Assembly: GCA_040766985.1 (NCBI GenBank)
Contig: JAXGPL010000008.1
Span: forward strand, 49,978-113,977
Length of the DNA: 64,000 bases
Reading direction: 5' to 3'
Source of the DNA: Bacillota bacterium
GTDB lineage: Bacteria > Bacillota > Sulfobacillia > JAUYEG01
In this document: one piece after another, positions 11,381-64,000 of the stretch
Layout of the letters: each line of letters begins with the position of its first letter
How positions within the stretch are numbered: the stretch's first letter is position 1
Made by a program: the position numbers and the translations under genes
Notes under the pieces: generated by a model
The model's input: the letters and a program-made list of their open reading frames with translations, nothing else
What the model was told of the DNA's origin: nothing
The model's database searches: none

Positions 11381-11458
11381 TATAGTGCTGCTCACGGGCC
11401 AGTGGTGCCCGGCCCCCCCGGGCTTCATAGTATGTAGCAATACTGAGGGGGCTCGTCC
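11381..11458. promoter_or_regulatory. Divergent promoter region between the two glycan/CotS operons
   Basis: 78-bp gap with the only AT-rich patch in the area. It contains TAGTAT (11428-11433, -10-like) and the inverted repeat AGTAT-N6-ATACT (11429-11444), followed by RBS GAGGGGG and ATG 11459. Confidence 0.45.
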
Positions 11459-12595
11459 ATGCAGCAAGGCCACGGCGGCGCGGCCCGCATCGGCCTCGAC
11501 ATCCGCTCGGCGCATTGGTATCCGGGGCACGGCATCGGGACTTACACATCCGAGCTGTTCCGGGCGCTCCCGGCGTCCGCCGGCGGCCGGGACGTCGTCG
11601 GCCGGGCCCGGGGCGTGGAGATACCCGCCGGAAACCTTCCCTCTGCGATCCCCAACCCTGTGCCCGGCGAGTTGTTCTGGCGGATGGCGGCGGACCCTGC
11701 CCAAATCACGGGGGACGTCGCGCTCTGGCACAACCCCCACAACGGCCTCGGCGCTCCGGAGCACGCCGAGGTACCGCTGATCCTCACGGTGCACGACCTG
11801 ATCCCATTGGTCTACCCCGATGCCGCGCGGGAGGACTACGTCCGCGAGTTCGAGGCGCAGGTCCCGAAGGCGGTCGAGGCGGCGTCGGCGATCATCACCG
11901 TCAGCGAACACTCCAAACGGGATCTCATCGGGCTGCTCGGCACGGATCCCGCGCGGGTCCGGGTCATCCCGGAGGCCGCGCGCTCCTTCCTGCGCCCCGT
12001 GCCGAAACACGTTGCGCGGCGCTGGGTGGCCGGCCGGTACGGGATCACGGGACCGTTCGCGCTGTACCTGGGAGGATTTTCCGAACGCAAGAACGTGCTC
12101 ACCCTTATCAGAGCTTTTGCCCAGGCTAAGCCCCGTTTGCCGCGTGGATGCGCGCTCGCGGTGGCCGGCGCGCAGGACCGGACCTACGGTCAGGTCGCCG
12201 AGGAGGCGCATAGGTTGGGTTGCGCGCATGACATCGTCTTTCTGGGCCACGTCCCGGATGAGGTCCTCACCCTGCTGTACAGTGCGGCAGACGTATTCGT
12301 CTATCCGTCGCTTTACGAGGGGTTTGGACTTCCGCCGCTGGAGGCGATGGCGTGCGGCTGTCCGGTGGTGTGTTCGGACGCGACTTCGCTGCCCGAAGCC
12401 TGCGGGCCCGCCGCGTTGCTCGTCGACGCCGGGCGGCCTGAGGCCATCGCCGCAGCCATTGAACGCGTCTTGACCGACGAGAAGCTCGCCGCAGAGTTGG
12501 CCGCCCGAGGGCCACGATGGGCGGCGCGGCTGGGATGGAACGATGTCGCGCGGATGACGCTGGCCGTGTACGCCGGGGCGCTGGAGACCGGATGA
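11459..12595 (+). CDS. GT4 family glycosyltransferase
   Basis: ARIGLDIRSAHWYPGHGIGTYT N-terminus; YEGFGLPPLEAMACGCPVVCSDATSLPEACG. Confidence 0.85.
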   Translation: MQQGHGGAARIGLDIRSAHWYPGHGIGTYTSELFRALPASAGGRDVVGRARGVEIPAGNLPSAIPNPVPGELFWRMAADPAQITGDVALWHNPHNGLGAPEHAEVPLILTVHDLIPLVYPDAAREDYVREFEAQVPKAVEAASAIITVSEHSKRDLIGLLGTDPARVRVIPEAARSFLRPVPKHVARRWVAGRYGITGPFALYLGGFSERKNVLTLIRAFAQAKPRLPRGCALAVAGAQDRTYGQVAEEAHRLGCAHDIVFLGHVPDEVLTLLYSAADVFVYPSLYEGFGLPPLEAMACGCPVVCSDATSLPEACGPAALLVDAGRPEAIAAAIERVLTDEKLAAELAARGPRWAARLGWNDVARMTLAVYAGALETG

Positions 12596-12613
12596 CCGTG
12601 CGGGGGGATCAAT

Positions 12614-14305
12614 GTGACCTTCATTAAGTCGACTGGAAATGAGTTTGCCGCGCGCCGGCAGCACTACGAATTGCTCCGCCAGGCGGTCCGGGCATACGGC
12701 TTCGCTCCCGGCGCCATGGTCCGCATCGGCTCGGGATACCGGGTCGAGGGGCCTGCGGGGCCGCGTTTCCTTAAACGGCTCAACTACGGCCCGCCCGAGG
12801 CCTCGTTTATCTACCACGCCCTGGAGCATCTGCGGCGCACCGGCTTCGCGGAGGCGCCGCGGATGCACCTCACAACCGACGGCCTGCCGTTCATCGTCCC
12901 CGACGGCGAGATCTATTACCTCCAGGACTGGCACGACCTCAGCGATCCGGACCTTGGCGATCCGTCGGTTCTCGGCGGCTGCGTCGATCTGATGGCGCGG
13001 TTACACAGGGCGGGCGAGGGATTTGAGCCCCCGGGGGACATCGCCGACGTCCGCAACGACTACGGCTCGTGGCTGGACAAGTGCGTCGGGCGCCTGCGGG
13101 AGATGTATAGCTTCGCCGAACTTGCGGAGGAAAGGAAGCGCATCAACGCTTTCGACGGACGGTACGCGCGCGCAAGCCTGTACTTCGCGCGCCAGGCAGA
13201 GGAGGCGGTGCGCAGGCTGGCCGAACTCCCGCTCGCCGAGGTCGCGCAGCGTGAACGGCAGGCCAAGGCCCTCTGCCACAGGGACTTCACTCCGCGCAAC
13301 CTAGGTCTTGACGCCAGATCCAAGCTCCGCGTGTTCGATTTTGACAACGTGGCGCGCGAAGTGCGCCTGGATGACCTGGCCAAGTTTATCCGCCGGGCGG
13401 CCTACCTTGACGTTGACCGCGCGGCGTTCATCGTCGAGCGGTACGGCCGCGAGACGGGCAGGGCTCTGAGTTCCGAGGAAATCGCCCTGCTTTCTGCCTA
13501 CCTGCTATTTCCCACAGAGTTCTGGTCCGTGGGCAATTCGCGGTTCCGCAAGGACCGGCCGCGCGAACACAGACTCCGCCGCCTGATCCGGGACAGCGAG
13601 GCCTGGGCCTCCTTTGCCGAGGCCTTGGCCGACCTGAACGTGCCGAGGAGCGAGCTATCGGCCGCGAGCAGGGGCGGCTGGCTCAGCGACGCGCCAGGCG
13701 GCGCACCAGGCAGCATGCTGGACCCTGCCGGCGAGGGCCCCGAGGGCATCGCCCTGCCGGAGGGGCCGTATCTACCGTCCGTGCCGTTTGCGGAGGGGCA
13801 TACCGCGCCGGCCGCTGTTGCAGACACCGGGTTGGTCCGCTTCGACCGGCCCGCCGCCCCATCCAGTCCAGACCAAGAGGAGGTCGTATCGACCGTGCCA
13901 TCGACCGACAGCTGGAATTGTGACCGCCCGCAGGAAGAGAACACCGGGATACCGGTTGTCGCACATCAGGACCCGGCTGACGCACATCAGGACCAGGGTG
14001 ACGAAGCGCCGGAGGAGCAGATCTGGGTCGGCGCCGAGCTTCCCGAGGGGGCCGAACCCTGGGTTGATCCCATCGCCTCCGGCGGGGATGCCGCCTCGGA
14101 CGCGCCCGGGCAGTCACCGCCGGTTTCCATTGACGCGGGAGTTGAGGAAGCCATAGTCGAGGCGGATGCGGAGCCGCAGGGGCCCGAGGCCGCGGATGAC
14201 TACGTGGAAGCGCGCCGCGGGCTGATTACCAGTGCGACGACCATTGTCTGGGGGAAGTGGCCGAAGCCGATGGAGAAGGCGTCTTCCGGGGGACAGCAAG
14301 GATGA
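12614..14305 (+). CDS. CotS-family kinase-like protein (copy 3) with a roughly 230-aa acidic/Pro-rich C-terminal tail
   Basis: GTG after GGGGGGA. Kinase motifs FLKRL, LCHRDFTPRNLGL, VFDFDN. From about residue 330 the sequence is low-complexity D/E/P/A-rich. Confidence 0.75.
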   Translation: MTFIKSTGNEFAARRQHYELLRQAVRAYGFAPGAMVRIGSGYRVEGPAGPRFLKRLNYGPPEASFIYHALEHLRRTGFAEAPRMHLTTDGLPFIVPDGEIYYLQDWHDLSDPDLGDPSVLGGCVDLMARLHRAGEGFEPPGDIADVRNDYGSWLDKCVGRLREMYSFAELAEERKRINAFDGRYARASLYFARQAEEAVRRLAELPLAEVAQRERQAKALCHRDFTPRNLGLDARSKLRVFDFDNVAREVRLDDLAKFIRRAAYLDVDRAAFIVERYGRETGRALSSEEIALLSAYLLFPTEFWSVGNSRFRKDRPREHRLRRLIRDSEAWASFAEALADLNVPRSELSAASRGGWLSDAPGGAPGSMLDPAGEGPEGIALPEGPYLPSVPFAEGHTAPAAVADTGLVRFDRPAAPSSPDQEEVVSTVPSTDSWNCDRPQEENTGIPVVAHQDPADAHQDQGDEAPEEQIWVGAELPEGAEPWVDPIASGGDAASDAPGQSPPVSIDAGVEEAIVEADAEPQGPEAADDYVEARRGLITSATTIVWGKWPKPMEKASSGGQQG

Positions 14306-15306
14306 GTTTGGAGCTGCCCGGAGTGTTTGCGGCCTACGGGCTGGAGGTTTCGCACTTCGACCAGGTCGGAGAACACCTTTGGCATCTCGCCGTGCCGGGC
14401 GGCGAATTGGCCCTGCGCGCCATCCCGCGCAGCGGCTCGAAGGCGGAGCTATCGCTGCTGGCGTTGGATCGCTTGATTGCCGGCGGCTTCGCCAACCTCC
14501 CCAGATTCCACGAGACCAAGGAAGGCTCCATCGGCCACCGGTCGGAGCATGTCACCTGGCTGGTGTCCGACTGGGTCACCGGGCATGGAGCGACGCTGGG
14601 ACTGACCAGCGACGCCGTCGTGGCCGGGCGTGACCTCGCTCGATTGCACACCCTGGCCGATAGTCTTCGGGCTCCCGAGGACCTGGCCGCGCACTTCGGG
14701 CGGCACCTCAGCCGCTGCCGGAGCAGGCTCAAAGCTCTGCGGACATACGTCTTGGTGGCCGAAAACCGGATCTACCAAACTGCGACCGACCGGGTGTTCC
14801 TCGGGCTGATGGAGGGGATCCTGCCGCTCGCGGAACGGGTCATCCGCGACCTCGAAGCGTCGCCATACCGCGAACTGGCCGAATCCGACCGCGCCCGGGG
14901 GGCTTTCATCTACCACAACATGGGCGAGGGCGGCGTCGTCATCACCCACGAACCCCAGCCGCGGGCCATGTTCGTCGACTGGAGCGGCTGTCGCCTGGAC
15001 AGCCCGGTGTTCGACCTCTGCAAACTCATCGGCCGGGTCGCCAAAGGGTCCGGGGGCGACCCGGAGGTCTGCCGCCGCACCCTTTGCGCATACCAATCTG
15101 TACGCCCGCTAAGCCAGGCCGAGGCCGCTGTGCTGCCCCTGCTGCTGCAGTTCCCGCAGGAGTTCTACGCGGTCGCCAAACGCTATTACGAGAACAAGCG
15201 GGACTGGACGGAGCGTTCGTTCACCAGGCGGCTCCGGCGCGCCGTCGACCGCGGCGCCGCGCTCGCAGCGTGCCTGACCCCGCCGCCTCCGGCCGACGGA
15301 AATTGA
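14302..15306 (+). CDS. CotS-family kinase-like protein (copy 4), catalytic loop degenerate (probable pseudokinase)
   Basis: ATGA overlap with the previous gene. CotS-like N-terminus (FAAYGLEV...). Where the paralogs have H-x-D-x4-N, this copy has FIYHNMGEGGVVI, followed by VDWSGCRLD. Confidence 0.65.
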   Translation: MSLELPGVFAAYGLEVSHFDQVGEHLWHLAVPGGELALRAIPRSGSKAELSLLALDRLIAGGFANLPRFHETKEGSIGHRSEHVTWLVSDWVTGHGATLGLTSDAVVAGRDLARLHTLADSLRAPEDLAAHFGRHLSRCRSRLKALRTYVLVAENRIYQTATDRVFLGLMEGILPLAERVIRDLEASPYRELAESDRARGAFIYHNMGEGGVVITHEPQPRAMFVDWSGCRLDSPVFDLCKLIGRVAKGSGGDPEVCRRTLCAYQSVRPLSQAEAAVLPLLLQFPQEFYAVAKRYYENKRDWTERSFTRRLRRAVDRGAALAACLTPPPPADGN

Positions 15307-15325
15307 CATGAGGTGAGCCTAGACC

Positions 15326-16540
15326 TTGATTGTGGTTTTCGACGGCCGCGGTGCTACCCGCTACCGCGGCACCGGGATCGGCACGTATACACATTGCCTT
15401 GCGGAGGCGCTCGAGGCGACCCGCCTGCCGACCGACGTCCTCCTCGTCTGCCTGGCCCGGGAGGGTGGCCCGGTGCCCCTCGAGGCGGCCGCCGTCCGGC
15501 AGGCCCCGGTTCCTGGCGGCGGGCTGGTGACATGGCGGTTGTCCTCCGCCAGGCGGGACGACGAGGCCTCGGAAATCGCCGCCATCTGCCGCCGCGTGAA
15601 CGCGGACGTCCTGCACATGCCCCAGAACGGACGGGGAATGCCGGATGTCGGCTGCGCGGTCGTGACGACCGTCCACGACCTGATCCCGTACGCCCTCCCC
15701 CAGACGTGCAGTGCATCCTACCTCCATGACTGCTTGGCCCAGATGCCCGCGATCGTCAGGCGGTCCGACCGCCTGATCGCCGTGTCCCGGCACACGGCCA
15801 CCGGCCTCGTGGAAACTCTCGGCGTCCCCCCCGACAAGATCGCCGTCATCCACGAAGCGGCTGAGCCGATCTACACCGCGCGAAGAGGCGACGGCGGCGG
15901 GAACCGTGGGGACCGCGCGGCGGCCCCGGCGCCGGGTGGCGCAATGCCGGCGTCCCAGGGCCTTCCCCCGCAGTACATCCTGCACACGGGCGGGTTCAGC
16001 CCCCGCAAAAACCTCACCGCGCTGGTGACGGCGATCTACGCCCTGGTCAAGTCGGGGCGGGCGCAGGGGAAATTACCGGCGGTCGTACTCACAGGGCGCG
16101 CGGGGCGGGACAACGAGGCGATTTCAGCTCTGGCGAGGCGGCTTGGTGTAGCCGATCGGGTCTTCATGCCGGGCATGCTGCCGGTTGAGGCCATGCCGGC
16201 GCTGTACGGCAACGCCGTCGCGGTGTGCCTGCCTTCGCTGCACGAGGGCTTCAGCCTGCCCATCGTCGAGGCGATGGCCTGCGGCGCCCCGCTATTGCTG
16301 TCGGACATCCCGGTACACCGGGAGATCGCGGGCCCCGCCGCGGCGTTCTTCGATCCTTACGATCCGGAGGATCTGGCAAAGCAGCTGGACTGGCTGGTCA
16401 GCCGGCCGGACCAGCGTTCGGTGATCTCGTCCCTGGGCAGAGCACGTGCCCAACGGTATAGCTGGCGAAGGGCCGGCCGCGAAACTTGGCTCGCCTACCG
16501 CTGGGCGGTGATGGAGCGTGAGCCAGACGCAAGCGCCTGA
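15326..16540 (+). CDS. GT4 family glycosyltransferase
   Basis: TTG start 9 nt after GAGGTGA. MIVVFDGRGATRYRGTGIGTYT N-terminus; HEGFSLPIVEAMACGAPLLLSDIPVHREIAG. Confidence 0.85.
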   Translation: MIVVFDGRGATRYRGTGIGTYTHCLAEALEATRLPTDVLLVCLAREGGPVPLEAAAVRQAPVPGGGLVTWRLSSARRDDEASEIAAICRRVNADVLHMPQNGRGMPDVGCAVVTTVHDLIPYALPQTCSASYLHDCLAQMPAIVRRSDRLIAVSRHTATGLVETLGVPPDKIAVIHEAAEPIYTARRGDGGGNRGDRAAAPAPGGAMPASQGLPPQYILHTGGFSPRKNLTALVTAIYALVKSGRAQGKLPAVVLTGRAGRDNEAISALARRLGVADRVFMPGMLPVEAMPALYGNAVAVCLPSLHEGFSLPIVEAMACGAPLLLSDIPVHREIAGPAAAFFDPYDPEDLAKQLDWLVSRPDQRSVISSLGRARAQRYSWRRAGRETWLAYRWAVMEREPDASA

Positions 16541-18296
16541 CGCGGTCGAACGGCGGCTCCGCTGTCACTCGCTGCGGCCGCGTTCCGCTGCCCTGGGCAC
16601 GCCGGGGCCGGTCGACGCCGAGCTAGGACCGGGCGATATGCTGGCGGTCATCGGCCCGCCGGGGGCCGGTAAGAGCTCCCTGCTGCGGGCCATCGCCGGC
16701 CTGGAGGACCCGCTCTCCGGCGGAGCTTTGGTACACGGTTCGCCGGCCTGGTCGCTCGCGTCCGCCGGTCCCCGGCCGGGGCTGGTTTCGGCGGCCAGCC
16801 GGCTCCATGACGGGTGGACCGCCGAGAAGTCCGCACGCGCCGGATTCGAGGCGGCGGGGTGGCCCGGCGAGCACCTGGCCGGGGCGGTCTCCTCTGTGTT
16901 CGAGCAGCTCTCCCTGGCCCCGCTCGCAACGAGGACGCCGTCCGAGCTGACCACGGCCGAACGCCACCAGGTGTTGATTGCCCGTGAGCTTGTTTCGTTT
17001 CCATCCATGCTGTTATTGGACGATCCTTACTCAGGCGAGGGTGCCGCCACACGGCGGGAGGTCGCAGGAACCATCCGGGTCGCCCGGGAGAAGCTCGGGA
17101 CCACAGTCGTATACGCCTCGGAGTCGCCGGACGAAATCACCGCGACTGCAACGCAGACCACAGTGCTCACCGTCCCGCTCGACATCACCCCCTTGGCCGA
17201 CTTGCTCAAAAAGCGCGGATCCGCCAAGAACGGCGGCGGAAGCGGCGCAGGCGAGCCGCCAGAGGCCACTTCGGCCGGAGGCGAACCCGCCGGGACAGCC
17301 GCCGGGACAGCCGCCGGGGCAGCCGGCGGCGCCGCCGCCGACGCCGTTGCGGCCGATTCAACTGCCGCACCGGGATTGCCCGCAGCACCCATCCCGAAGG
17401 GAGCTTCCGGGCCACTCGGACACGGGGGAGGCGGCGTGGCCGGGGAACCGCGGTGGGTCGCCGCGGCCGTCTTCGGGTATACGGCGCCCGGCGACGCACA
17501 TGCCCTGCACCTTGCCGGTCCCGGAGGCCCGGCGCGCGAAGCGCTGCTGGTCCTCGACCTCACCCGTCTGCCCGGAATGCAGTGGATTTCCAGCGACGGG
17601 GCCCTCGATACCGGTCCGGGACAACCTCCGAGGGGCGTCGCCTGGGTGGCGACCGGAAGCGTAAGAGCAGACACCGGGTTCAGGAGGCCATTCGGCGGCC
17701 CGGTGACTGTGGAGATCACCCCTGGCGACGGCTCGGTCCAGCGCACCCGGGCGATTCTCGTCGACCTGGCCGAGAGCACGCCGGCGCTGCGACTGGAGCT
17801 TCTGTCCGACGGCTCGGGGCACCGGGGCCCGCGGCTCGTCCTCGGCATCTGGCGGCGACGGACGGATGCCCCGGTCCTTCGCAGACTGGCGCGCGAAGCC
17901 GGGCGGGAGCGGGCGTGCCTGCCCGTTGTCGTCGCCGGGTCGCACGTGGCGGCTGCAGAGCAGTTTCCATACTGCTACCTCCGGACTACGCCCTTGCACC
18001 CGTCGCCGTGGCGTTCGCTCATCCGGGGGAGGATCGTCGCGGCCCTGCCCGGGGGGCCGCAGCCGGCATACGGCCCGGCAATGGGCAACGCCCCCGACCT
18101 GCTCGGGCGTCCCGACCTCGTCCTGAGCGTAGAACACTTCCAACGCCGGGCGATGGTGGCGCTGCAGCAGGCTCCGCGCGGGACGGGCGGGGCGGACGGC
18201 GATCCCATCCTCGCCGCAGCCCTGTGGGCGCTGACCACCGGCAGCCCCGGCCTGGCGATGAGCCTGCTGCGGGCCGGCGGCCGCGACAGTGGCTAG
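16518..18296 (+). CDS. Degenerate ABC-ATPase domain fused to an Ala/Gly/Pro linker and an unknown roughly 330-aa C-terminal domain
   Basis: Walker A GPPGAGKSS. Signature-like LTTAERHQV. Walker B reads MLLLDDP (Asp replaces the catalytic Glu). The H-loop position reads YASES. No transmembrane segments, and the C-terminal domain is unrecognised. Confidence 0.6.
   Translation: MSQTQAPDAVERRLRCHSLRPRSAALGTPGPVDAELGPGDMLAVIGPPGAGKSSLLRAIAGLEDPLSGGALVHGSPAWSLASAGPRPGLVSAASRLHDGWTAEKSARAGFEAAGWPGEHLAGAVSSVFEQLSLAPLATRTPSELTTAERHQVLIARELVSFPSMLLLDDPYSGEGAATRREVAGTIRVAREKLGTTVVYASESPDEITATATQTTVLTVPLDITPLADLLKKRGSAKNGGGSGAGEPPEATSAGGEPAGTAAGTAAGAAGGAAADAVAADSTAAPGLPAAPIPKGASGPLGHGGGGVAGEPRWVAAAVFGYTAPGDAHALHLAGPGGPAREALLVLDLTRLPGMQWISSDGALDTGPGQPPRGVAWVATGSVRADTGFRRPFGGPVTVEITPGDGSVQRTRAILVDLAESTPALRLELLSDGSGHRGPRLVLGIWRRRTDAPVLRRLAREAGRERACLPVVVAGSHVAAAEQFPYCYLRTTPLHPSPWRSLIRGRIVAALPGGPQPAYGPAMGNAPDLLGRPDLVLSVEHFQRRAMVALQQAPRGTGGADGDPILAAALWALTTGSPGLAMSLLRAGGRDSG
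17289..17324 (+). repeat. Three tandem 12-nt units (GCCGGGACAGCC x2, GCCGGGGCAGCC) encoding AGTA repeats in the linker
   Basis: Read directly from the sequence at 17289-17300, 17301-17312 and 17313-17324. Confidence 0.9.
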
Positions 18297-19386
18297 CGTC
18301 GGCTCGAGTTGCCCCACTTATGCCGCCATCCTGGCGGGCGGGAGCGGCAGCAGGTTTTGGCCCTGGAGCCGGGAGTCCCGGCCCAAGCAACTGCTGTCGC
18401 TCGACGGCGGCCCGACGCTCCTTGAAACCACCACGCGCCGGATGCTCCGGATCGTTCCTCCGGAACGGCTCTTGGTGATCACTCGCACCGACCTGCGCGC
18501 AACCGTCACCGGCCTGCTCCCGGACATACCGGCGGAGAACGTGATCGGCGAGCCCGAACCAAGAGACACCCTCGCCGCAGTCGTCCTGGCTGCAGCGCTC
18601 GCCCGGGTCCGGTCGGGGCGCACCGACGCCGTTACGGTAATCGCGTCATGCGATCACGTGATTTCCGGGCAGTTGGCCTTCAGGCGGAGCATTGAATCGG
18701 CGGCCGCGCTCGCCGCCGGCACCTCGCGGCTGGTCACGCTGGGCATCCGGCCGGGCTGGGCAGAAACAGGCTACGGCTATGTCCGGCCCGGCAAGAGCAT
18801 CGCCGGGCCGGGCCCGGTAAGCGCCCGCGAGGTCGTGGCCTTCGTCGAAAAACCGGGCCTTCAGCGGGCCGAACGGCTGGTTGCGGAAGGCTGCCTGTGG
18901 AACGCCGGGATATTCGCGTGGCGCTCGGACGTGCTGCTTTCGGCGGCCGGACGTCACGTGGCCGGCGCGGCCGCGGCGGTCGCCCGCATCATCAGGGCCC
19001 TTGGCGAGGAGGGCCGCGCCTTGAGCGAGGTGTACGCGGCGTTGCCGCGGGTTTCCGTGGACCGGGCGATACTCGAGCGAGAGCCCGGCCTGGCCGTCGT
19101 CGAAGCCGAATTCGGTTGGCACGATGTCGGCACCTGGAATGGGTTGGCCCGGACGGCCGGCGGCGATACTGCGGGCAACGTGTCGTTTGGGCCCGTAATG
19201 GCCTTCGACGGCGCAGGGAACATCGTCCAAGCCCGGGCCGGAAGACCTGTCGTCGTGGCCGAAGTGAGCGGCCTTGTGATCGTCGACATGCCGGACGTCC
19301 TGCTGGTGACGAGCCGTGCTCAGGGCCAGCGAATCAAGCAGGTCCGGGAGCAGTTGCGCCGGGAGGGCTGGGACCGCCTGCTGTAG
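18289..19386 (+). CDS. manC: Mannose-1-phosphate guanylyltransferase
   Basis: YAAILAGGSGSRFWPWSRESRPKQLL N-terminus and GYGYV; length about 365 aa. Confidence 0.8.
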   Translation: MASVGSSCPTYAAILAGGSGSRFWPWSRESRPKQLLSLDGGPTLLETTTRRMLRIVPPERLLVITRTDLRATVTGLLPDIPAENVIGEPEPRDTLAAVVLAAALARVRSGRTDAVTVIASCDHVISGQLAFRRSIESAAALAAGTSRLVTLGIRPGWAETGYGYVRPGKSIAGPGPVSAREVVAFVEKPGLQRAERLVAEGCLWNAGIFAWRSDVLLSAAGRHVAGAAAAVARIIRALGEEGRALSEVYAALPRVSVDRAILEREPGLAVVEAEFGWHDVGTWNGLARTAGGDTAGNVSFGPVMAFDGAGNIVQARAGRPVVVAEVSGLVIVDMPDVLLVTSRAQGQRIKQVREQLRREGWDRLL

Positions 19387-22248: not shown

Positions 22249-22391
22249 GCCGGCCGCCACCTCCACTTGGCGTTATCTACCATCGAGCCCAGGAGAGGGA
22301 ACTTCCGGTATCACTGAGAAACATCCCTTTACCTGGCCGGGTGTTGTCAGCACCCTGTCCCCGCATCCTCGAAGGGAGAAATTCGGCGCAA

Positions 22392-23558
22392 ATGAGACAT
22401 TCCTCTCCGTGGCGTTCGCCCGCCGGCGTCGCCATCCTGTTCACATTGCTCATCGTCACCGCCCTGGGAACGGTGCCGCCCGTTCCAGCCGCCCCCGAGG
22501 CGCCTCCGGGCGCGGCTGGAACGGCGGTCGACCCGGGGACCGGACCGTCCGGGGAAACGCCGGCGGCGGCAACGGAACCGCCCACAGCTACAACACCGTC
22601 GGGCGGCGACGGGACGCCTTCCGGCGGCACCGGGACGCCAGCCAGCGGGACCGAAAAGCCGTCCGGCGGCACCGGCACTGCGCAGAAGCCACCCGCGACC
22701 GGGGCCGGGGGATCGGGCTCTTCCAACTCCGTCTGCACGGTCCGGCAGGGCGATACCCTCTGGCTCGTCGCGCAACGGCACGGGACGACCGTCGACGCCC
22801 CAAAGGCAGTCAACAATCTATCCGGAGACACTATCTACGCCGGCGAGACGCTCCGCCTGCCGGGCGGAGCGACGGCGGTATCATCGCGCGGCGGAACGGG
22901 CACGGCCCTCAAGACGGCAGGCTTTGTTTACGGGGGCGGAGTCGTCCTGCACAAGGTCGCCCAAGGGGAAACCCTCTCGCAGATCGCCGCCCGCCACGGG
23001 ACCACGGTTGAGGCGATCAGGAACGGCAACAACCTGCGCTCGGAACTGATCATGATCAACCAGCCGCTGTTCCTGCGGCCGGGAAGCCCGGCTCCGGCGT
23101 CAGTCACCGTAAGCGCGGGTCCACACGGACCCGGCGGGGCCGAAATGCTCGACTGGAGCAAAGCCAGATGGCTGTTCGGCGTAGACTATACCGCAACCCT
23201 CCGCGATCCGGCCACGGGACGCGAGTTCAGGGTCAAGCGCCTCGGCGGCTCCAACCACGCCGATATCGAGCCGCTCACCCCCGCGGACACGGCCGCGATC
23301 AAGGCAATGGCCGGCGGCGGCTGGACCTGGACACCCAAGCCCGTGCACGTGATTGTCGGGGGACGCACGCTCGCAGCGTCGATGAACTTCATGCCCCATC
23401 AACTGGACACCATCCCGGGCAACGGCATGCAGGGACACGTCTGCCTGCACTTCAGACACAGCACAACGCATGTGGACGGCCTCGAGCGGGCCGACCACCA
23501 GGCCGCCGTGCTAAGGGCCGCCGGGCTTGCGGGCGTAAGCCTGCCGCCGGGGATGTAG
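22392..23558 (+). CDS. Secreted protein with two LysM domains and an unrecognised C-terminal domain
   Basis: Signal peptide (VAILFTLLIVTALG), a Pro/Gly/Thr-rich linker, and two LysM repeats (CTVRQGDTLWLVAQRHG..., HKVAQGETLSQIAARHG...). The C-terminal domain contains GGGWTWTPKPVHV...GHVCLHFRHSTTH. Confidence 0.7.
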   Translation: MRHSSPWRSPAGVAILFTLLIVTALGTVPPVPAAPEAPPGAAGTAVDPGTGPSGETPAAATEPPTATTPSGGDGTPSGGTGTPASGTEKPSGGTGTAQKPPATGAGGSGSSNSVCTVRQGDTLWLVAQRHGTTVDAPKAVNNLSGDTIYAGETLRLPGGATAVSSRGGTGTALKTAGFVYGGGVVLHKVAQGETLSQIAARHGTTVEAIRNGNNLRSELIMINQPLFLRPGSPAPASVTVSAGPHGPGGAEMLDWSKARWLFGVDYTATLRDPATGREFRVKRLGGSNHADIEPLTPADTAAIKAMAGGGWTWTPKPVHVIVGGRTLAASMNFMPHQLDTIPGNGMQGHVCLHFRHSTTHVDGLERADHQAAVLRAAGLAGVSLPPGM

Positions 23559-28236: not shown

Positions 28237-28908
28237 CTAACGGACGTAGTTGAGGGCCCACTGGAACAGAAACAGGTGCAACTGCTCGTCAGCGATGATC
28301 CTGACGAGTAGTTGCCTTATATACGGGTCCTCGATCGCCCGGAAATGGCGCTCGTATTGGGCGATTGCTTCGCGTTCCGCCTCGATGTCGGCTTCGAGCT
28401 GCGCCCGGAAACCCTCCCGGTACTGCACGCGCCGTGCATCCCAGTAGGCACCCTCGCCGTCATAGAAGCGCGGGTCGCCGCCAAGCAGGCGGATGGTTTC
28501 GCCAAGGAGTTCAAGATGGCGCATCTCGACCACGCTGATGTCCTCGAGCATCCCGCCGATCCACGCAAGGCCGGCCGGCGCCACAAGGTGGTGATAGATG
28601 TACTGCGCCGCTGCGCTGAACTCGCTTACCCTGCCGGCGTAGTCCTCAAGCAGAAGGCGGGCGTAATCGGAGTTTCTGCCCTTGACCTGCGGCTCAGGGT
28701 ACGGACCGGGTGCGGCGACGCACAGGCGGCGCTCGGGACCGTGTTGAGATGCGGGCCCCGCCCGATACCTCAACTCCGGCTCGGGGAAATACGATGGCAC
28801 GCGCACGGATTGCCCGGGTCCGGCATCACCGCCGCCGGTGGCGGAGCTGGCTCCGCCGGCATCGAACATCGCGCCGGCGCCAGGCCCTTCTTCGCGCGAT
28901 GAAGTCAT
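28237..28908 (-). CDS. Ferritin-like / manganese-catalase-family protein (CotJC-like)
   Basis: LLLEDYAGRVSEFSAAAQYIYHHL and VVEMRHLELLGETI resemble the two metal-binding helices of CotJC/Mn-catalase. ATG 28908 lies 7 nt after GAGGGAG. Confidence 0.5.
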   Translation of the reverse strand: MTSSREEGPGAGAMFDAGGASSATGGGDAGPGQSVRVPSYFPEPELRYRAGPASQHGPERRLCVAAPGPYPEPQVKGRNSDYARLLLEDYAGRVSEFSAAAQYIYHHLVAPAGLAWIGGMLEDISVVEMRHLELLGETIRLLGGDPRFYDGEGAYWDARRVQYREGFRAQLEADIEAEREAIAQYERHFRAIEDPYIRQLLVRIIADEQLHLFLFQWALNYVR

Positions 28909-29019
28909 GGCGACACTCCCTCTCGAGACGGGCATGTCGGTCGCGCCCGTCGGACGGACCAGGCTATTCTATGCGCGTCCAGCCGGGCTCACCACGCAGG
29001 GACGGGCGTCGATCATGCT

Positions 29020-48768: not shown

Positions 48769-49998
48769 GGCTGGAGGAAGGTCCCCTGATCGTAGCGGAC
48801 CTGGCCGAAGCGGCGATAGTCGCCGAGTTGGCCATGCGCCGCCTCCCCGCGAGCTCCGGGATGCGGCAGGGTTGCGGCGGCCCTGTCGGGCGTACACAAC
48901 AGGCACGCCCCGTCGCACCCCGCCACCGGCCCGAACTGCTCTGCGGTCGACGCCCGCGCATATAGGGGGACGTCGATCCCTGCAACTGCGGGTAGTCGCA
49001 AACTCCCGGTTGAGGCCCGTCGGGCAGGCTGCTCTTGGCGCCCGGCCTTCCATATTCCATACACAGCGCGAAGGTCATCCCCGCATTCGGCAAGGCCCGC
49101 CACGTATGCGAACAGGTCGCGGCGGTACCTTCGGCCGCATGCATGCTCGCGCCGATGCGTTCCCGGTAGAGGCCGGCAAACCGCCTCTTCCACCGCTCCT
49201 TGCGGCCTTGAGGCATGCTCAGGAGAGTTGGTCGAGTACAGCGTTGCGGGAAACCAGCGGCACATCCACACAGCTGGCCACCAGATGGTCTGCTCCTGCC
49301 TTGCGGACGGCGGCAACCAGTGAACGGAGCTGGTCCTGGTCGTCGGTCAGGTAGATGATGGGATCAACGCGGGCCACCGCGTAGAGGCCGGCTTGCTTGA
49401 TCCGCACAAGGTTGTCGAGCAGCGTCTGCGGTCCCGGGCTGCCCGGCATTAGCCTCTCCTGTGGAGTCCCTCGTCGAGGGTGATCAGAGAGACCTGACCA
49501 AAGCAATGGGGCTGCCCCATCATGATTGACAACGCCTCGTCCGGCACTATGCCCTTGGTGACGAACTCAACGGGCAGGCCCCGCCGTACGAACTCCCGGA
49601 TGATCGCGACGGAGAGCCCGTACACTGATCAAGCGGCTGGAACGGATCGGTTACAGGCGACAGATAGCCGCAGGACGCCACGCGCAAAGAATCGAGCTGC
49701 TTTGCCACCTCGCGGTCGAAATCCTCGCTGCAGACGGTCACGATCGCCATGCTGGGCAAACATCGCAAACCGCCCCGGCAGGGCATGGGCATAAGCAGTA
49801 GCAGCAATTGTGCGTGCACCCGTTGTAGGGGTTGACCAGCAGCCGCTCGGAAGTACAGTCCCGCTTGCCGGGCCACCAGCCGTGAAGTCTCTTGCTGGTC
49901 GCCGTGAGCACGTGCGGCACCGGATCGCGCTTGACGCCGTCGGGAAGCGGCGAACCGCGCTTACTGCCTGCCCTCGGGGTCCTTCTCGGTTTGGCCAT
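48765..49998 (-). pseudogene. Radical SAM protein of the SplB / DNA-photolyase-like (COG1533-type) group, with at least 4 frame breaks
   Basis: LVNPYNGCTHNCCYC (CxxxCxxC) is in the first ORF. Later pieces (YLSPVTDPFQPL, ARVDPIIYLTDDQD, GADHLVASCVD...) lie in other frames. Confidence 0.45.
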
Positions 49999-50109
49999 AG
50001 GTTATGCTTTGCCTCCCATCGGCCGACACCTCCCGGCGCTCAGAGGAATCCGCCGGGTTGTGCCAAATTGTGCTTCTCAAGTCAAATATGGAAGGGGTGG
50101 ACGCAGAAT

Positions 50110-50952
50110 TTGGTGAACGAGTCGACCGCAGGTTAATCTGGCCGCTCGTACCGCACTGCTGATCGGGTGTCTCGCCGTAGGATGTGGGCCAAGCACGGCC
50201 ACGGTCAAGGTCACCCTCAAGGACCAAGACGGTGGCTTGCGGGGATTCACCGTCACGATCGGCGACAAGAGCTTACGACTGACGCCGGTGGCGTCGCGAC
50301 AGTCAAGGAGGTGCCGCCCGGCCAGGTCACCATCCAACTGAGCGGCGAAGGAGTGACGGGTGAACACACGGAGACGGTCAAAAAGGGCGATAACGCGTTT
50401 TCCTATACCGTCGATATGCATGCGTTCAGCTTTGTTCCTTTCGGCGACATCGCCAAGATGCGGCTGAAGATCAGCTCCAACGGACAGGAGATGGCTGAAG
50501 CGGTACTGGTTTCGGACCAGGGATCACATTGGGTCATGAGCGGCGGTCAGGTTATTGTGATTGGCGACCAGTTTTACGTCAAGGTCGGCGATGAGCCATG
50601 GACACTGGTGCCGACGGAGGAATTGACCGGGTCCGGGATGAGCATGGCCGCATATACAGCCTTCTTTGCTCAGAACTGGGCGGCCAGCCTTGAGACCTTC
50701 GATGATCAACTGGCCAGCGAAGGGATTACGGCCGAGTTCAAAGGGACCGGCACGGCAAACGAATACAGCTGCGACATATATGAGGCGACGATTGCGGAGA
50801 GCGAGTCTGGACCGATCCGGTTCTACATAATCAACGAGGGCGAGTACAAGGGGCGCATCACCCGGTACGAGGATGTGACTCCCTCAGAGCACTCTGGGGT
50901 CATGGATATCTATGATTTTGGCGCGGAGCTTAACGTGGAGGCCCCCTTCTAG
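50110..50952 (+). pseudogene. Putative lipoprotein with a carboxypeptidase-regulatory-like beta-sandwich, frame breaks near the N-terminus
   Basis: The signal/lipobox segment NLAARTALLIGCLAVGCG and VKVTLKDQDGGLRGFTVTIGDKSL are in one frame. TDAGGVATVKEVPPGQVTIQL and the rest are in the 261-aa ORF. Confidence 0.4.
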
Positions 50953-56985: not shown

Positions 56986-57120
56986 AGATAGCCTCCTTCC
57001 GCCCGCGGCAAGCGCCGGGGGCCGAAGGTACTTCTAGCGCCAAAGCTTGTTTCTCCTGCCGCCGGAGCGGGACCCCGGCGGGCCGCATCCCAGCATCCTA
57101 GATAGAACGCCATCAGATGG

Positions 57121-57175
57121 TTACTTGGACCTTGGGGCGGGACTATCACTGTCTATGGAAGGTGACCCGGCCGGT
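57121..57175 (+). promoter_or_regulatory. Conserved 5' module of mini-gene 1 (GTTAC-N17-ACTA ... GGAAGGT-N2-CCCGGCCGG)
   Basis: All four mini-genes share the same architecture and spacing. The box ends 36 nt before the GTG. Confidence 0.5.
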
Positions 57176-57211
57176 GCCTCCAACAGAATATCGGTCAAAG
57201 GAGTGTTCCTT

Positions 57212-57553
57212 GTGGGTAAGAAACACAACTGCGGGTGCGTCCTGCCAGTCGAGATCGCGGTTGCTCCCTACGTTGCCGGCCCCTGCAACGGTGCTGTAGC
57301 AGGTTACGGCGCAGGTTGCCAAGGCGCAGTCGCCGGTTACGGCGGCTACCCGGGCGCTGCAGGGGGGGTTGCCGGCGGGTTCGCCGGCGGCTGCTTTGCA
57401 CCGCTGGCGGCCTGCTCTCAGGGCGTCTGCATCGAGAACGGCGAGCTTCTGATCGCCGCGGTGCTGCTGTTCCTGGGCCTCGGCCTGTTCAATGGCAACT
57501 GCCACCCCGGCGGGATCGGCCAGCTTCTCGGCGCGGTCAAGTCCCTTCAGTAA
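57212..57553 (+). CDS. Small Gly/Cys-rich tail-anchored peptide, paralog 1 (113 aa)
   Basis: GTG 8 nt after AAAGGAG. VGKKHNCGC...GYG repeats...CFAPLAACSQGVCIENGELLIAAVLLFLGLGLF. The 168-aa ORF in the track is over-extended. Confidence 0.7.
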   Translation: MGKKHNCGCVLPVEIAVAPYVAGPCNGAVAGYGAGCQGAVAGYGGYPGAAGGVAGGFAGGCFAPLAACSQGVCIENGELLIAAVLLFLGLGLFNGNCHPGGIGQLLGAVKSLQ

Positions 57554-57592
57554 CCGCCGTCCCAAGCGCAATCACACCGGACCCTGGATCGA

Positions 57593-57614
57593 GGGGGCGG
57601 CGCAGGCCGCCCCC
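57593..57614 (+). terminator. GC hairpin after mini-gene 1 (no U-tract)
   Basis: GGGGGCGG-cgcagg-CCGCCCCC. Confidence 0.35.
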
Positions 57615-57664
57615 CCATCGCCGGTCCACCCCGCCCCGCATCCTATGCAGACCGACGCAAGTAA

Positions 57665-57719
57665 GTTACCTGCACTTATGCCGTCAACTACTCTGATTCT
57701 AGAAGGTCCCCGGCCGGGG
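57665..57719 (+). promoter_or_regulatory. Conserved 5' module of mini-gene 2
   Basis: GTTAC (57665), N17, ACTA (57687), GAAGGT, CCCCGGCCGGGG (57708-57719). Ends 36 nt before the GTG. Confidence 0.5.
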
Positions 57720-57755
57720 TCGCCACGGACAACGGACATAAGGAGTGCATTTACT

Positions 57756-58058
57756 GTGGGCAAAAAGAAGCGCCACGACAAATGCCGCTGCTACTGCTGC
57801 TGCGAGTGCTGCCCCGCTCCACGCATGGGCGGCTACGGCATGGGGTACGGCCAGGGCCAGGTTGCGGGATACGGCCGCGGAGGGTACGGCATGGGCATGG
57901 GCTATGGCATGGGCTACGGCGCGGGAGACATGTACAGCCAATGTTTCGCGCCTCTGACGGCCTGTTCGCAGGGCGTCTGCATCGAGAACGGCGAGCTTTT
58001 GATCGCCTTTGTCCTGCTGCTGATCTTCCTTTTCAGCCGCGACAAGTTCCCCATCTAG
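57756..58058 (+). CDS. Small Gly/Tyr/Cys-rich tail-anchored peptide, paralog 2 (100 aa)
   Basis: GTG after AAGGAG. VGKKKRHDKCRCYCCCECC...(GYG/GMG)n...CFAPLTACSQGVCIENGELLIAFVLLLIFLF. Confidence 0.7.
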   Translation: MGKKKRHDKCRCYCCCECCPAPRMGGYGMGYGQGQVAGYGRGGYGMGMGYGMGYGAGDMYSQCFAPLTACSQGVCIENGELLIAFVLLLIFLFSRDKFPI

Positions 58059-58078
58059 GCAAAGCAGCCGCGATCGGC

Positions 58079-58111
58079 GGGAGGGCGGTTGCGGCCGCCC
58101 TCTCTTCTTTG
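58079..58111 (+). terminator. Rho-independent terminator after mini-gene 2
   Basis: GAGGGCGG / CCGCCCTC stem followed by TCTTCTTTG. Confidence 0.65.
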
Positions 58112-58151
58112 CGCCGGCCAACCTCCATCCTACGCTCTTCCTGCTCTGAAG

Positions 58152-58207
58152 GTTACCTCCCGCGTCTGTTCAGAGTACATCTGACTAGTGGAAGGCGCCC
58201 CGGCCGG
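58152..58207 (+). promoter_or_regulatory. Conserved 5' module of mini-gene 3
   Basis: GTTAC (58152), N17, AGTA (58174), GGAAGGC, CCCCGGCCGG (58198-58207). Ends 32 nt before the GTG. Confidence 0.5.
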
Positions 58208-58239
58208 CTCCCCCCACGAAACCAAAAGGAGTGAGTCTT

Positions 58240-58386
58240 GTGCCCGTATACGGCAACAACTGCTTCTCCCCGTTGGCTGGTTGCACGCAGGGCGTGTGCA
58301 TCGAAAACGGCGAGCTTCTGATCGCGGCGGTCCTGCTTCTGATCTTCCTGTTCAGCGAAAAGGATCACAGGTTCCCACCCTGCTAA
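58240..58386 (+). CDS. Small tail-anchored peptide, paralog 3 (48 aa; absent from the ORF track)
   Basis: GTG after AAAGGAG. VPVYGNNCFSPLAGCTQGVCIENGELLIAAVLLLIFLFSEKDHRFPPC*. Essentially the conserved module alone. Confidence 0.7.
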   Translation: MPVYGNNCFSPLAGCTQGVCIENGELLIAAVLLLIFLFSEKDHRFPPC

Positions 58387-58420
58387 TATCGTCGGCCGAT
58401 AGCCGCCGCAGGGCGGCAAA

Positions 58421-58453
58421 GAGGGGCGGGTCGTCCCGCCCCTTGTTCTTTTT
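58421..58453 (+). terminator. Rho-independent terminator after mini-gene 3
   Basis: GAGGGGCGGG-tcgt-CCCGCCCCTT followed by GTTCTTTTT. Confidence 0.75.
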
Positions 58454-58513
58454 GCGGGGAGGACACATGCCGCCGCCGGGCCTGCGCCTCCCTCCCCTCC
58501 CCGGTATGACCCG

Positions 58514-58569
58514 GTTACCAGGAGGCCGCCCGGCGACTATGACTAGCAAGTGGAAGGTACCCCGGCCGG
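58514..58569 (+). promoter_or_regulatory. Conserved 5' module of mini-gene 4
   Basis: GTTAC (58514), N17, ACTA (58536), GGAAGGT, CCCCGGCCGG (58560-58569). Ends 34 nt before the ATG. Confidence 0.5.
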
Positions 58570-58603
58570 CGCCTCAACCGAACGTCGCAAAGGAGTGTCT
58601 AGA

Positions 58604-58858
58604 ATGGCCCGTCACAACCAGGGATGCGGCATGCCTTGGGCTTGGGGTGGCTATGCTGCCCCGTACTTCGGCTCCCAGGCGGCTCCCCCGTACGCCGGCC
58701 AAAACGGCTGCTATGCGCCCCTTGCTGCCTGCTCACAGGGTGTCTGCATCGAAAACGGTGAGTTGCTCATCGCTTTCGTCCTGCTCCTGATCTTCTTTCT
58801 GGGCAAGGACAACAGCTTCCCGCCGGGACCCCCGCCGTGGGTGAGTAAGGAAGAGTAG
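58604..58858 (+). CDS. Small tail-anchored peptide, paralog 4 (84 aa)
   Basis: ATG after AAAGGAG. MARHNQGCGMPWAWGGY...CYAPLAACSQGVCIENGELLIAFVLLLIFFLGKDNSFPPGPPPWVSKEE. Confidence 0.7.
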   Translation: MARHNQGCGMPWAWGGYAAPYFGSQAAPPYAGQNGCYAPLAACSQGVCIENGELLIAFVLLLIFFLGKDNSFPPGPPPWVSKEE

Positions 58859-58887: not shown

Positions 58888-58913
58888 GGGGGCGGCTGCC
58901 CCCCCCCCCCCCC
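58888..58913 (+). repeat. GC hairpin merging into a 15-nt poly-C homopolymer (58899-58913)
   Basis: GGGGGC-ggct-GCCCCC, then an uninterrupted C run counted directly from the sequence. It lies between mini-gene 4 and adenine deaminase. Confidence 0.9.
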
Positions 58914-62984: not shown

Positions 62985-63998
62985 CAATTGTCCACCTCGA
63001 CGTGCAACTCCAGCTGGGCCGCGCGATGGCACGCGACGGTCCGCGACCGCGGGCCGTCGTGGACCGGGACCGGCTCCGGCGCGGCCTCGCGGCAGATATC
63101 CTCCGCAAACGGGCAGCGAGGGTGAAGGCGGCAGCCTGCCGGCGGGTTAATCAGGCTAGGCGGGTCGCCGGCAAGGCCATATCGCTTGCGCTCGCGGCGT
63201 CTCGGGTCAAGCGGCGGCGATGCGGACAGAAGGGCCGCGGTATAGGGGTGCATCGGCCGCCGGTACAACTCGGCCGTCGGGCCGACTTCAACGATCTTGC
63301 CGAGATACATGACCCCGATCCGGTCGCTCAGGTAGCGGACCACGGAGAGGTTGTGGGTGATGAACAGATACGTCAGGCCGAACTGCTGCTGCAGGTCCAG
63401 CAGAAGGTTGAGGATCTGGGCCTGCACCGATACGTCGAGGGCCGAGGTCGGCTCGTCGAGGATCAGCATCTCCGGCCGCAGCACGAGCGCCCTGGCGATG
63501 CTGGCGCGCTGCTGCTGGCCGCCGCTCAACTGGTGCGGATAGCGGTCGAGGAGGTCATCGCTCAGGTTCACAAGGCTGATCGTCTCCGCAAGCCGGGCCG
63601 CGGCCTCTTTGCCGGTAACGCCATGCAGGGCCAGCGGACGGAGGATGGAAGTGCGCACCGTCCAGCGGGGCATCAGCGAAGAGGCCGGGTCTGGAATACG
63701 ATCCCCATCCGCCTGCGCAGCCGCGTGGTCAGGGCCGCCGGCCTGGCGTCCGGCCGTCGAAGGCACCCGGCCGCCAGTGGGCGCGGCGAGGTGCGGTATC
63801 AGGCGGGCAAGGGTCCTTGCCGCTGCCGCTCTCGCCGACCAGGCGAAGGTCTCGCCGCGCGCGATGTCGAGCGTAGCCCATCGACCGCACGGACGCCCAG
63901 CGGACCTGTTTTCGGAGCAGACCCTTGGTCATCGAATAGTACTTGCTCGTGTTCTCCAGTTGGACCAACGCAGCCGTCGTCACGGTCGTACCTCCCAC
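62984..63998 (-). pseudogene. Oligopeptide/dipeptide ABC transporter ATP-binding protein (OppF/DppF-type), N-terminal third spread over several frames
   Basis: LSGGQQQRASIARAL, LILDEPTSALD, ITHNLSVV and the C-terminal oligopeptide-type extension (PMHPYTAALL...CRLHPRCPFAEDIC) are intact. Walker A LVGESGSGK and flanking segments (LDIARGETF, TLARLIPHL, RMGIVFQ) alternate frames. Confidence 0.75.
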
Positions 63999-64000
63999 AC

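Follow-up and report, generated by a model that had tools for sequence, protein, structure and literature searches.

Four small genes stand in tandem on the plus strand of a 64,000-nucleotide stretch of DNA from a Bacillota bacterium (contig JAXGPL010000008.1 of assembly GCA_040766985.1, positions 49,978 to 113,977), which we refer to in full as the window. They lie within positions 57212-58858 and encode proteins of 113, 100, 48, and 84 amino acids (c1 to c4; Table 1), located just where a preliminary description of this DNA had put them. All four proteins share a 29-residue C-terminal module, and a protein alignment of c1-c4 has 21 invariant columns in this region (C..PL..C.QGVCIENGELLIA.VLL), which bears out the near invariance that had been claimed for it. 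On the DNA level, the module appears as a 103-nt repeat with four copies that are 73-78% identical to one another. Nei-Gojobori counts on the 29 module codons were used to measure selection. Between the copies c1-c4, the proportion of differing synonymous sites (pS) is 0.44-0.68 and that of nonsynonymous sites (pN) is 0.06-0.14, for a ratio of nonsynonymous to synonymous substitution (dN/dS) of 0.04-0.20; between orthologs in two related organisms, the dN/dS of the module is 0.04-0.33. Over the paralog and ortholog comparisons together, pS runs from 0.39 to 0.73, with synonymous sites near saturation. The low dN/dS therefore indicates that selection acts on the peptide, and the earlier argument against a DNA or RNA repeat is upheld. 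The GC content at third codon positions in the plus-strand frames of c1-c4 is 0.75-0.84, as in the other genes of the window, and in the overlapping antisense open reading frames (ORFs) it is 0.59-0.70. The array is protein-coding sequence, far above chance expectation.

Database entries have obscured the true extent of these genes. In the public annotation, c1 (P0005, 132 amino acids) begins 19 codons too early, within a conserved noncoding leader at window positions 57155-57211, and over-early public starts also occur in the relatives P0003 and P0006. The 132- and 134-amino-acid versions of c1 can be recognized as starting too early because the over-long ORFs read the c1 leader in one frame in the window and in another frame in a relative, organism A. 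Because of the same disagreement in frame, the leader itself is taken not to be coding.

Each gene of the array comes with its own expression signals. When 17 leaders from five organisms were aligned (the four window copies and 13 from relatives), a conserved order of elements emerged: GTTAC, 17 nt, nnTAynACT, GGAAGG or AGAAGC, a GC palindrome, the Shine-Dalgarno sequence AAGGAGTG, and the start codon. GTTAC is invariant in 17 of 17 leaders, and TA..ACT, GGAAG, CCGGCCGG, and AAGGAGTG are conserved. The GC palindrome is CCCGGCCGG; the most distant organism has CCCC-loop-GGGG instead. The Shine-Dalgarno sequence lies 6-8 nt upstream of the start codon in the window copies and 6-9 nt upstream across the aligned leaders. 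GTTAC also keeps a nearly constant spacing to the start codon, 86-93 nt for 15 of 17 measured genes, the exceptions being A_c2 (99 nt) and E_4, for which the script took a spurious nearer GTTAC. Within the window, the pattern GTTAC-N18-21-TANNNCT has three matches, all of them at the array, against 0.14 expected. At the relatives' loci, every match except one (L015 203-233) precedes a gene of the family. Three organisms also have a [CT]ATnnTA box 19-20 nt 5' of GTTAC in their c1, c2, and c3 genes. The box recurs in a single additional gene, from organism C, and E_1 has the variant CATACTC at the equivalent position. The box may serve as an activator site, or else as the -10 element of a second promoter lying farther upstream. 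A promoter scan found no sigma-70-like site on either strand of the array, and in a comparison by eye none of the sigma-54, sigma-70, or sporulation sigma consensus sequences fitted the array motif.

The leaders do not behave as structured RNA. RNAalifold predicted two base pairs for the hairpin segment and no pair for the full-length leader, single leaders fold no better than shuffled sequences (z-scores of -1.15 to +1.25), and searches of Rfam 15 gave no leader match at the gathering score. A 5' stabilizer hairpin, drawn by eye from GGAAG/CUUCC and CCCC/GGGG pairings, was considered for the leaders and dropped since neither RNAalifold nor the z-scores support it. Because there is no consensus RNA structure and the conserved islands are separated by unconserved spacers of fixed length, we read the islands as DNA signals that would comprise a promoter and possibly an operator, and the palindrome may be a protein-binding site. 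At the 3' ends, a GC-rich hairpin follows each stop codon, with a T-run only on the hairpins of c2 and c3. The hairpin after c4 is a remnant in the window, and the public metagenome-assembled genome (MAG) contig has a perfect 9-12-bp hairpin at this place (GGGGGGCGG-CTG-CCGCCCCCC, in its longer form GATGGGGGGCGG-CTG-CCGCCCCCCATC); the window version of this terminator probably reflects a mis-assembly or a mutation. The preliminary description had assigned every copy its own ribosome-binding site, upstream block, and hairpin, and we can now put AAGGAGTG, the GTTAC motif, and the 3' hairpins to these names. Judged by these features, each gene is predicted to be its own transcription unit, with a family-specific, promoter-like motif not of the sigma-70 kind, a leader of fixed length (about 55 nt), a strong Shine-Dalgarno sequence, and its own hairpin. 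A sub-threshold match to the Guanidine-II (mini-ykkC) model was also noted on the minus strand at 58426-58498 (25.5 bits, where 32 are required; E=0.032). The match overlies the c3 terminator, the loop of which reads ACGA on that strand, and is most likely due to chance because no gene follows it there.

Table 1. Positions of the array genes, their expression signals, and other genes of the window that are discussed in the text
Feature	Position in window	Strand	Details
c1	57212-57553	+	GTG start; 113 amino acids; module 57392-57478; tail GGIGQLLGAVKSLQ
c2	57756-58058	+	GTG start; 100 amino acids; head MGKKKRHDKCRCYCCCECC, then GYG/GMG repeats; module 57942-58028
c3	58240-58386	+	GTG start; 48 amino acids; near-bare module 58261-58347 plus tail SEKDHRFPPC; P0018
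c4	58604-58858	+	ATG start; 84 amino acids; head GMPWAWGGYAAPYFGSQAAPPYAG; module 58709-58795; tail FPPGPPPW; P0001
Upstream box CATCCTA, unit 1	57094-57100	+	Also present in unit 2 (57639-57645) and unit 3 (58126-58132); absent from unit 4
c1 promoter-like motif	57120-57150	+	GTTAC, 17 nt, ACTATCACT; leader alignment
c1 leader	57157-57205	+	GGAAGG; palindrome CCCGGCCGG 57166-57174; AAGGAGTG 57198-57205
GC hairpin 3' of c1	57593-57614	+	GGGGGCGGC-GCAG-GCCGCCCCC; no T-run; ViennaRNA fold
c2 promoter-like motif	57665-57695	+	GTTAC, 17 nt, ACTACTCTG; leader alignment
c2 leader	57701-57747	+	AGAAGG; palindrome CCCCGGCCGGGG 57708-57719; AAGGAGTG 57740-57747
Intrinsic terminator 3' of c2	58079-58110	+	11-bp stem plus T-run
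c3 promoter-like motif	58152-58182	+	GTTAC, 17 nt, AGTACATCT; leader alignment
c3 leader	58190-58233	+	GGAAGG; CCCGGCCGG 58199-58207; AAGGAGTG 58226-58233
Intrinsic terminator 3' of c3	58421-58453	+	10-bp stem plus T-run
c4 promoter-like motif	58514-58544	+	GTTAC, 17 nt, ACTATGACT; leader alignment
c4 leader	58552-58597	+	GGAAGG; CCCGGCCGG 58561-58569; AAGGAGTG 58590-58597
Hairpin remnant 3' of c4	58888-58913	+	Runs into C15 tract 58899-58913; no T-run
CotS-like kinase-fold gene	14257-15306	+	E=1e-44, below NCBIfam cut-off; beside glycosyltransferase genes
PdaB-like deacetylase with LysM domain	1058-2104		Below NCBIfam cut-off
LysM protein	22341-23558		

Relatives of the four proteins are few and closely confined. 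A word-index search of 5.8 billion proteins recovered six family proteins, and a profile search with a wider alignment recovered 16. A HMMER search of 1.84 billion representatives returned 14 matches, ten of which are short, true relatives. The remaining four (P0010, P0011, P0013, and P0017; 1417-4612 amino acids) are huge Gly/Asp-rich proteins, each matched 4-5 times by the module profile through a repeated LGA.VENGRIL stretch; the matches of these giants, in which there is no Cys loop, are probably due to chance similarity. Module scans of genome and metagenome contig collections yielded spurious helix matches only and added no relatives. Overall, the family amounts to about 20 proteins, none of which carries a functional name (two are called "hypothetical protein") or a Pfam domain. 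The loci are labeled W (the window; public MAG GCA_964430585.1), A (L001-L003), B (L010; GCA_964502745.1), C (L011), D (L012), and E (L014-L016); we count five organisms including the window (four others), though the labels run W and A-E. All seven relatives whose contigs were fetched lie at one chromosomal address, which is also that of the window: M20 peptidase, PHP phosphatase, and TGS-domain GTPase genes, with or without two amidohydrolase genes, flank the array on one side, and adenine deaminase and PALP genes flank it on the other. W, A, and B have four copies each, which are 1:1 orthologous by their heads and tails, C and D have two, and E has at least three. The c4 ortholog P0002 is 80% identical, head included. 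From the searches and loci taken together, the family appears to be restricted to one lineage of uncultured high-GC bacteria with spore genes and to be previously unnamed. Beside the array of relative C, about 0.5 kb of short tandem repeats was observed (L011 3400-3900), first G-rich and then C-rich (ggggcgatgggctgcggggg..., later ccccgcctcgcc...). These repeats occupy the 0.7 kb spacer upstream of the array, where other relatives have two amidohydrolase genes.

Comparison across the family reduces the module to the core C-x2-P-x6-G-x-C-x-[ED]-N-G-x-[LI]-L-I-A. Behind this core comes an apolar run, which measures 13-15 residues in 16 of 19 members inspected; for the three members from organism E, the count extends into a Gly-rich stretch. 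Organisms C, D, and E and the protein P0014 have Y, H, V, or G in place of the middle Cys of the module. Only two cysteines are thus common to the whole family, and the "Cys triad" of the preliminary description is not a family feature. The single hydrophobic helix and the heads rich in Gly, Tyr, and Cys were correctly described there, with the qualification that the apolar stretch is just 13-15 residues long. The label "tail-anchored" is best kept as a prediction. AlphaFold2, run with a 14-sequence alignment, modeled no element of c3 except a helix (residues 24-41), and the predicted local distance difference test (pLDDT) score was 59.7.

Ahead of the module, the heads reach 62 residues and are rich in Gly, Tyr, Cys, Ala, and Pro, with Gly accounting for up to 18 of about 60 residues in the window copies and up to 23 in one relative; a composition of this kind suggests that they are disordered. 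The N-terminal parts had been called unrelated, a description that does not hold for the family. Most heads open with MG, continue with a basic cluster, and then reach a cysteine motif (CxC in several), as in MGKKHNCGC, MGKKKRHDKCRC, MGRNRDNACQC, MGHKRDDFYCKC, and MGRRCNY. The heads of c1 and c2 begin with MGKK and a CxC motif, like most relatives, and the c4 head is near-identical in W and A. In organism E, the public call starts P0015 too late and thereby hides a polybasic, poly-Cys N-terminus: the ORF extends upstream to VGRRKRSRKKRKCCECACSCKGCC (L014 889-1194), in parallel with the KCRCYCCCECC of c2. The c2 head is wholly different between W and A, and heads therefore seem to evolve by replacement and repeat expansion. 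The tails mark paralog types, with GGIGQ.LGAVK.LQ in c1, FPPC in c3, and FPPGPPPW in c4.

The paralogs within a genome appear to change in step. All four B copies have P[VT]..CA.GLC where all eight W and A copies have PL..C[ST]QGVC. ENGH replaces ENGE in both C copies and in one of the two D copies, the other (D_b) having FDLGD. All three E copies share CIVPFAGYSGGTCFENGE with synonymous differences among them. Recent gene conversion was considered as a source of this pattern and is not supported, because pS between within-genome paralogs (0.61) equals that between non-orthologs of different genomes (0.63); at nonsynonymous sites the within-genome paralogs are the closer pairs, with pN of 0.119 against 0.156. 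The co-varying positions are residues 5, 9, and 12 of the module. This change in step fits a co-evolution in which the paralogs would contact each other or share a partner.

Placing the family among known proteins was attempted with a range of resources. None of c1-c4 has a family match in Pfam, NCBIfam, PADLOC, PHROGs, or the PDB sequences, where the search brought up kalata B1 alone (E=0.44), and so the suggestion that the module falls outside the described families stands, with all of the roughly 20 relatives functionally unnamed. The preliminary description had also pointed to the YjcZ peptides of Bacillaceae (TIGR01732 "tiny_TM_bacill", PF09680), and here the architecture agrees while homology does not. 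Both groups are tiny proteins with a low-complexity head rich in Gly, Tyr, and Cys, one short apolar helix (16 residues in YjcZ and 13-15 in the new family), and a C-terminal end of a few residues, Cys often among them, and both occur in bacteria with sporulation genes. The differences lie in the YjcZ hallmark GFALIVVLFILLIIVGA, which is absent from the new family, and in the C-x2-P-x6-G-x-C-x-E-N-G loop, the longer heads, and the paralog-specific tails that the new family has instead. None of the four window proteins matches TIGR01732 or PF09680 at E<=10 in NCBIfam and Pfam, although a YjcZ-like sequence used as a positive control matches TIGR01732 at 2.5e-15. A single search gave a YjcZ reference set of 430 matches, all PF09680, which also dwarfs the new family in number. 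When 27 of these were aligned and compared by hhalign with the 14-sequence family profile, the outcome was a probability of 1.7% over one aligned column, and the new-family profile retrieves no YjcZ protein among the 1.84 billion representatives. In B. subtilis, yjcZ is one of the genes of the sigma-K regulon (PMC517825). By these comparisons, the new family is an analogue of YjcZ in design and not a member.

A second point of reference is the coat and crust of Bacillus spores, which contain Gly/Tyr/Cys-rich proteins such as the Tyr-rich CotC and CotU and the Cys-rich CotY and CotZ. Like the array, these coat proteins have a composition suggesting disulfide or dityrosine cross-links, monocistronic genes, and strong ribosome-binding sites. 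They differ from the new family in that they are not known to have a hydrophobic anchor or to share a motif with it, and no coat-protein homology was detected for c1-c4 in Pfam or NCBIfam.

Taken as a whole, the family is tentatively best read as a lineage-specific, membrane-anchored, cross-linkable layer of co-assembling paralogs, most likely made in sporulation, a reading that we hold to be possible and somewhat short of probable. The apolar helix would anchor the protein in or on the membrane, leaving the head and its basic N-terminus on the cis side, facing the cytoplasm. Through a disulfide or a shared metal, the pair of conserved cysteines could hold a small loop at the membrane surface, and the loop and helix together may form the unit by which two to four paralogs assemble or dock onto a common partner. 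The heads would then provide the layer that Cys and Tyr can cross-link. Production of this layer during sporulation, under an alternative sigma factor or an activator that reads the GTTAC motif, is the least certain step; this timing is thought most likely because of the analogy with the sigma-K-controlled YjcZ peptides and with the Gly/Tyr/Cys-rich coat proteins. A role of the array in sporulation is plausible and speculative on these grounds. The sharper version, in which the loop-helix module is a hetero-oligomerization unit that builds a spore or cell-envelope layer under a dedicated regulator acting on GTTAC-N17-TAynACT, and is unrelated by descent to YjcZ, is doubtful as a complete proposal.

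A number of observations weigh against the proposed sporulation layer. The apolar stretch is short for a span of the bilayer, the residues that precede it are acidic (ENGE), contrary to the positive-inside rule for an N-in topology, and the AlphaFold2 model is of low confidence, with the Cys loop below a pLDDT of 50. The change in step of the paralogs fits ancient gene conversion equally well, because synonymous sites are near saturation and its synonymous trace would have been erased. To our knowledge, the array promoter matches no sporulation sigma consensus in the B. subtilis literature; the sigma-K consensus is CATA---TA, to which the array motif bears no resemblance. The genomic setting is likewise unhelpful, since the immediate neighbors of the array are metabolic (amidohydrolases, adenine deaminase, and PALP enzymes) and the nearest sporulation-type genes of the window are more than 40 kb away, with none adjacent. 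The preliminary description had invoked these genes; the CotS-like and PdaB-like genes are indeed present in the window, and the array itself is not tied to sporulation by them. In favor of a sporulation setting, on the other hand, count these window genes together with Spore_YtfJ and DUF2953, whose genes stand 10 kb from the array in relative D, and from gene content the lineage probably forms spores.

The main rival dispenses with any link to sporulation and sees in c1-c4 small membrane proteins of vegetative growth or envelope stress, which would modulate or protect the membrane and whose genes would be read by a sigma factor of the extracytoplasmic function (ECF) type through GTTAC. The metabolic neighborhood suits this explanation, as does the two-block layout of the array motif, in which a -35-like block ending in AC(C) and a -10-like nTAT block stand 17 nt apart in the manner of ECF promoters. 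Relatives C and D have genes for an ECF sigma factor and a zf-HC2 anti-sigma factor 9 kb downstream of the array. The ECF gene is itself preceded by GCAACC-N17-GTAT[CT]A (L011 13760-13800 and L012 8330-8362), close to the GTTACC-N17-CTATCA of the array and with the same layout. The -35 boxes of ECF promoters typically have an AAC core, however, and every array copy has TAC in its place; the array motif also differs from ECF promoters in the extra [CT]ATnnTA box upstream and the CCGGCCGG palindrome downstream. Moreover, the ECF gene was seen in C and D and at a distance from the array, and the similarity of two short motifs may be due to chance. The ECF pair is a lead toward a possible regulator of the array and not evidence for one, and we judge an ECF-driven envelope-stress role unlikely, while taking it seriously.

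Membrane-active toxic peptides kept in several copies, whether of the type I toxin, holin-like, or bacteriocin-like kind, could also present themselves as small products with a single hydrophobic helix encoded by tandem monocistronic genes, and in some copies a CCUCC-like stretch of the conserved leader could pair with the Shine-Dalgarno sequence. The regulatory features of a type I toxin-antitoxin system were looked for in the sequence of both strands, and no antisense promoter or other sigma-70-like site, no conserved antisense element, and no consensus structure was found at the array, where the leaders, as noted above, fold like their shuffles. Gly-rich heads that reach about 60 residues are unlike known type I toxins, the locus is chromosomal and syntenic in all five organisms and not mobile, and PADLOC and PHROGs gave no match. 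A toxin function is therefore quite improbable. Precursors of ribosomally synthesized and post-translationally modified peptides (RiPPs), with the variable Cys/Gly-rich N-terminal part as the core and the invariant C-terminal part as a "follower," make for a still fainter prospect. Tandem small genes with hypervariable and invariant parts, Cys-rich stretches such as KCRCYCCCECC, and a radical SAM gene 8 kb upstream in two organisms speak for such precursors. The radical SAM protein, however, matches the Rv2578c/PA0069 families (below cut-off), which are not peptide maturases, and the peptidase, PHP phosphatase, GTPase, and two amidohydrolase genes stand between its gene and the array. No array has a YcaO, LanM-type, or dedicated exporter gene next to it, as judged from the Pfam labels that the predicted genes received. 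A hydrophobic helix would be unprecedented as a RiPP follower, and c3 has almost no "core" to be modified.

The idea of lipoproteins or C-terminally sorted surface proteins is disfavored and barely worth entertaining: the lipobox pattern [LVI][ASTVI][GAS]C accommodates PLAAC, PLAGC, and PLTAC, and a motif followed by a helix and a short charged tail recalls MYXO-CTERM or Synerg-CTERM sorting domains, but no CTERM model of NCBIfam matches at E<=10 and no signal-peptide hydrophobic region stands ahead of the motif. The lipobox-like L-[AT]-[AG]-C itself occurs in all four modules (57404-57415, 57954-57965, 58273-58284, and 58721-58732), a likeness that appears coincidental because of the missing signal peptide and because its Cys is lost in distant relatives.

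Whatever their role, these genes are a clean case of overlooked small genes, and small proteins are routinely missed or mis-called. Strong purifying selection, a private promoter motif, a fixed chromosomal address, and paralogs that change in step make the family a good candidate for study. If the proteins are indeed building blocks of an envelope or spore layer, then a Gly-rich head on a tiny hydrophobic anchor would have arisen more than once in spore formers, and the array would offer a way to the regulator behind the GTTAC motif. The reach of these findings is modest for now, with the family confined to uncultured organisms.

Several features elsewhere in the window were recorded along the way. 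Positions 10301-19386 hold a spore-coat-like plus-strand cluster that contains the CotS-like gene, glycosyltransferases, an ATP-binding cassette (ABC) ATPase, and a nucleotidyl transferase. The sequence CATAGTATGTA (at about 11427) precedes this coat-like operon and resembles mother-cell -10 boxes. A long ORF runs on the minus strand at about 10301-11380, and its longer form (10301-12934) has no Pfam match. On the minus strand at 28237-28935, a ferritin-like or Mn-catalase-like protein shows weak, sub-cut-off matches to models of ferritin-like encapsulin cargo (EncB). Finally, the window and the public MAG contig L004 (GCA_964430585.1) share 99.27% identity, with dozens of 1-6-nt indels that cluster at 48800-50300 and 63690-64000, where the frames of the radical SAM and ABC ATPase genes are broken in the window version; these indels look like assembly or strain differences.

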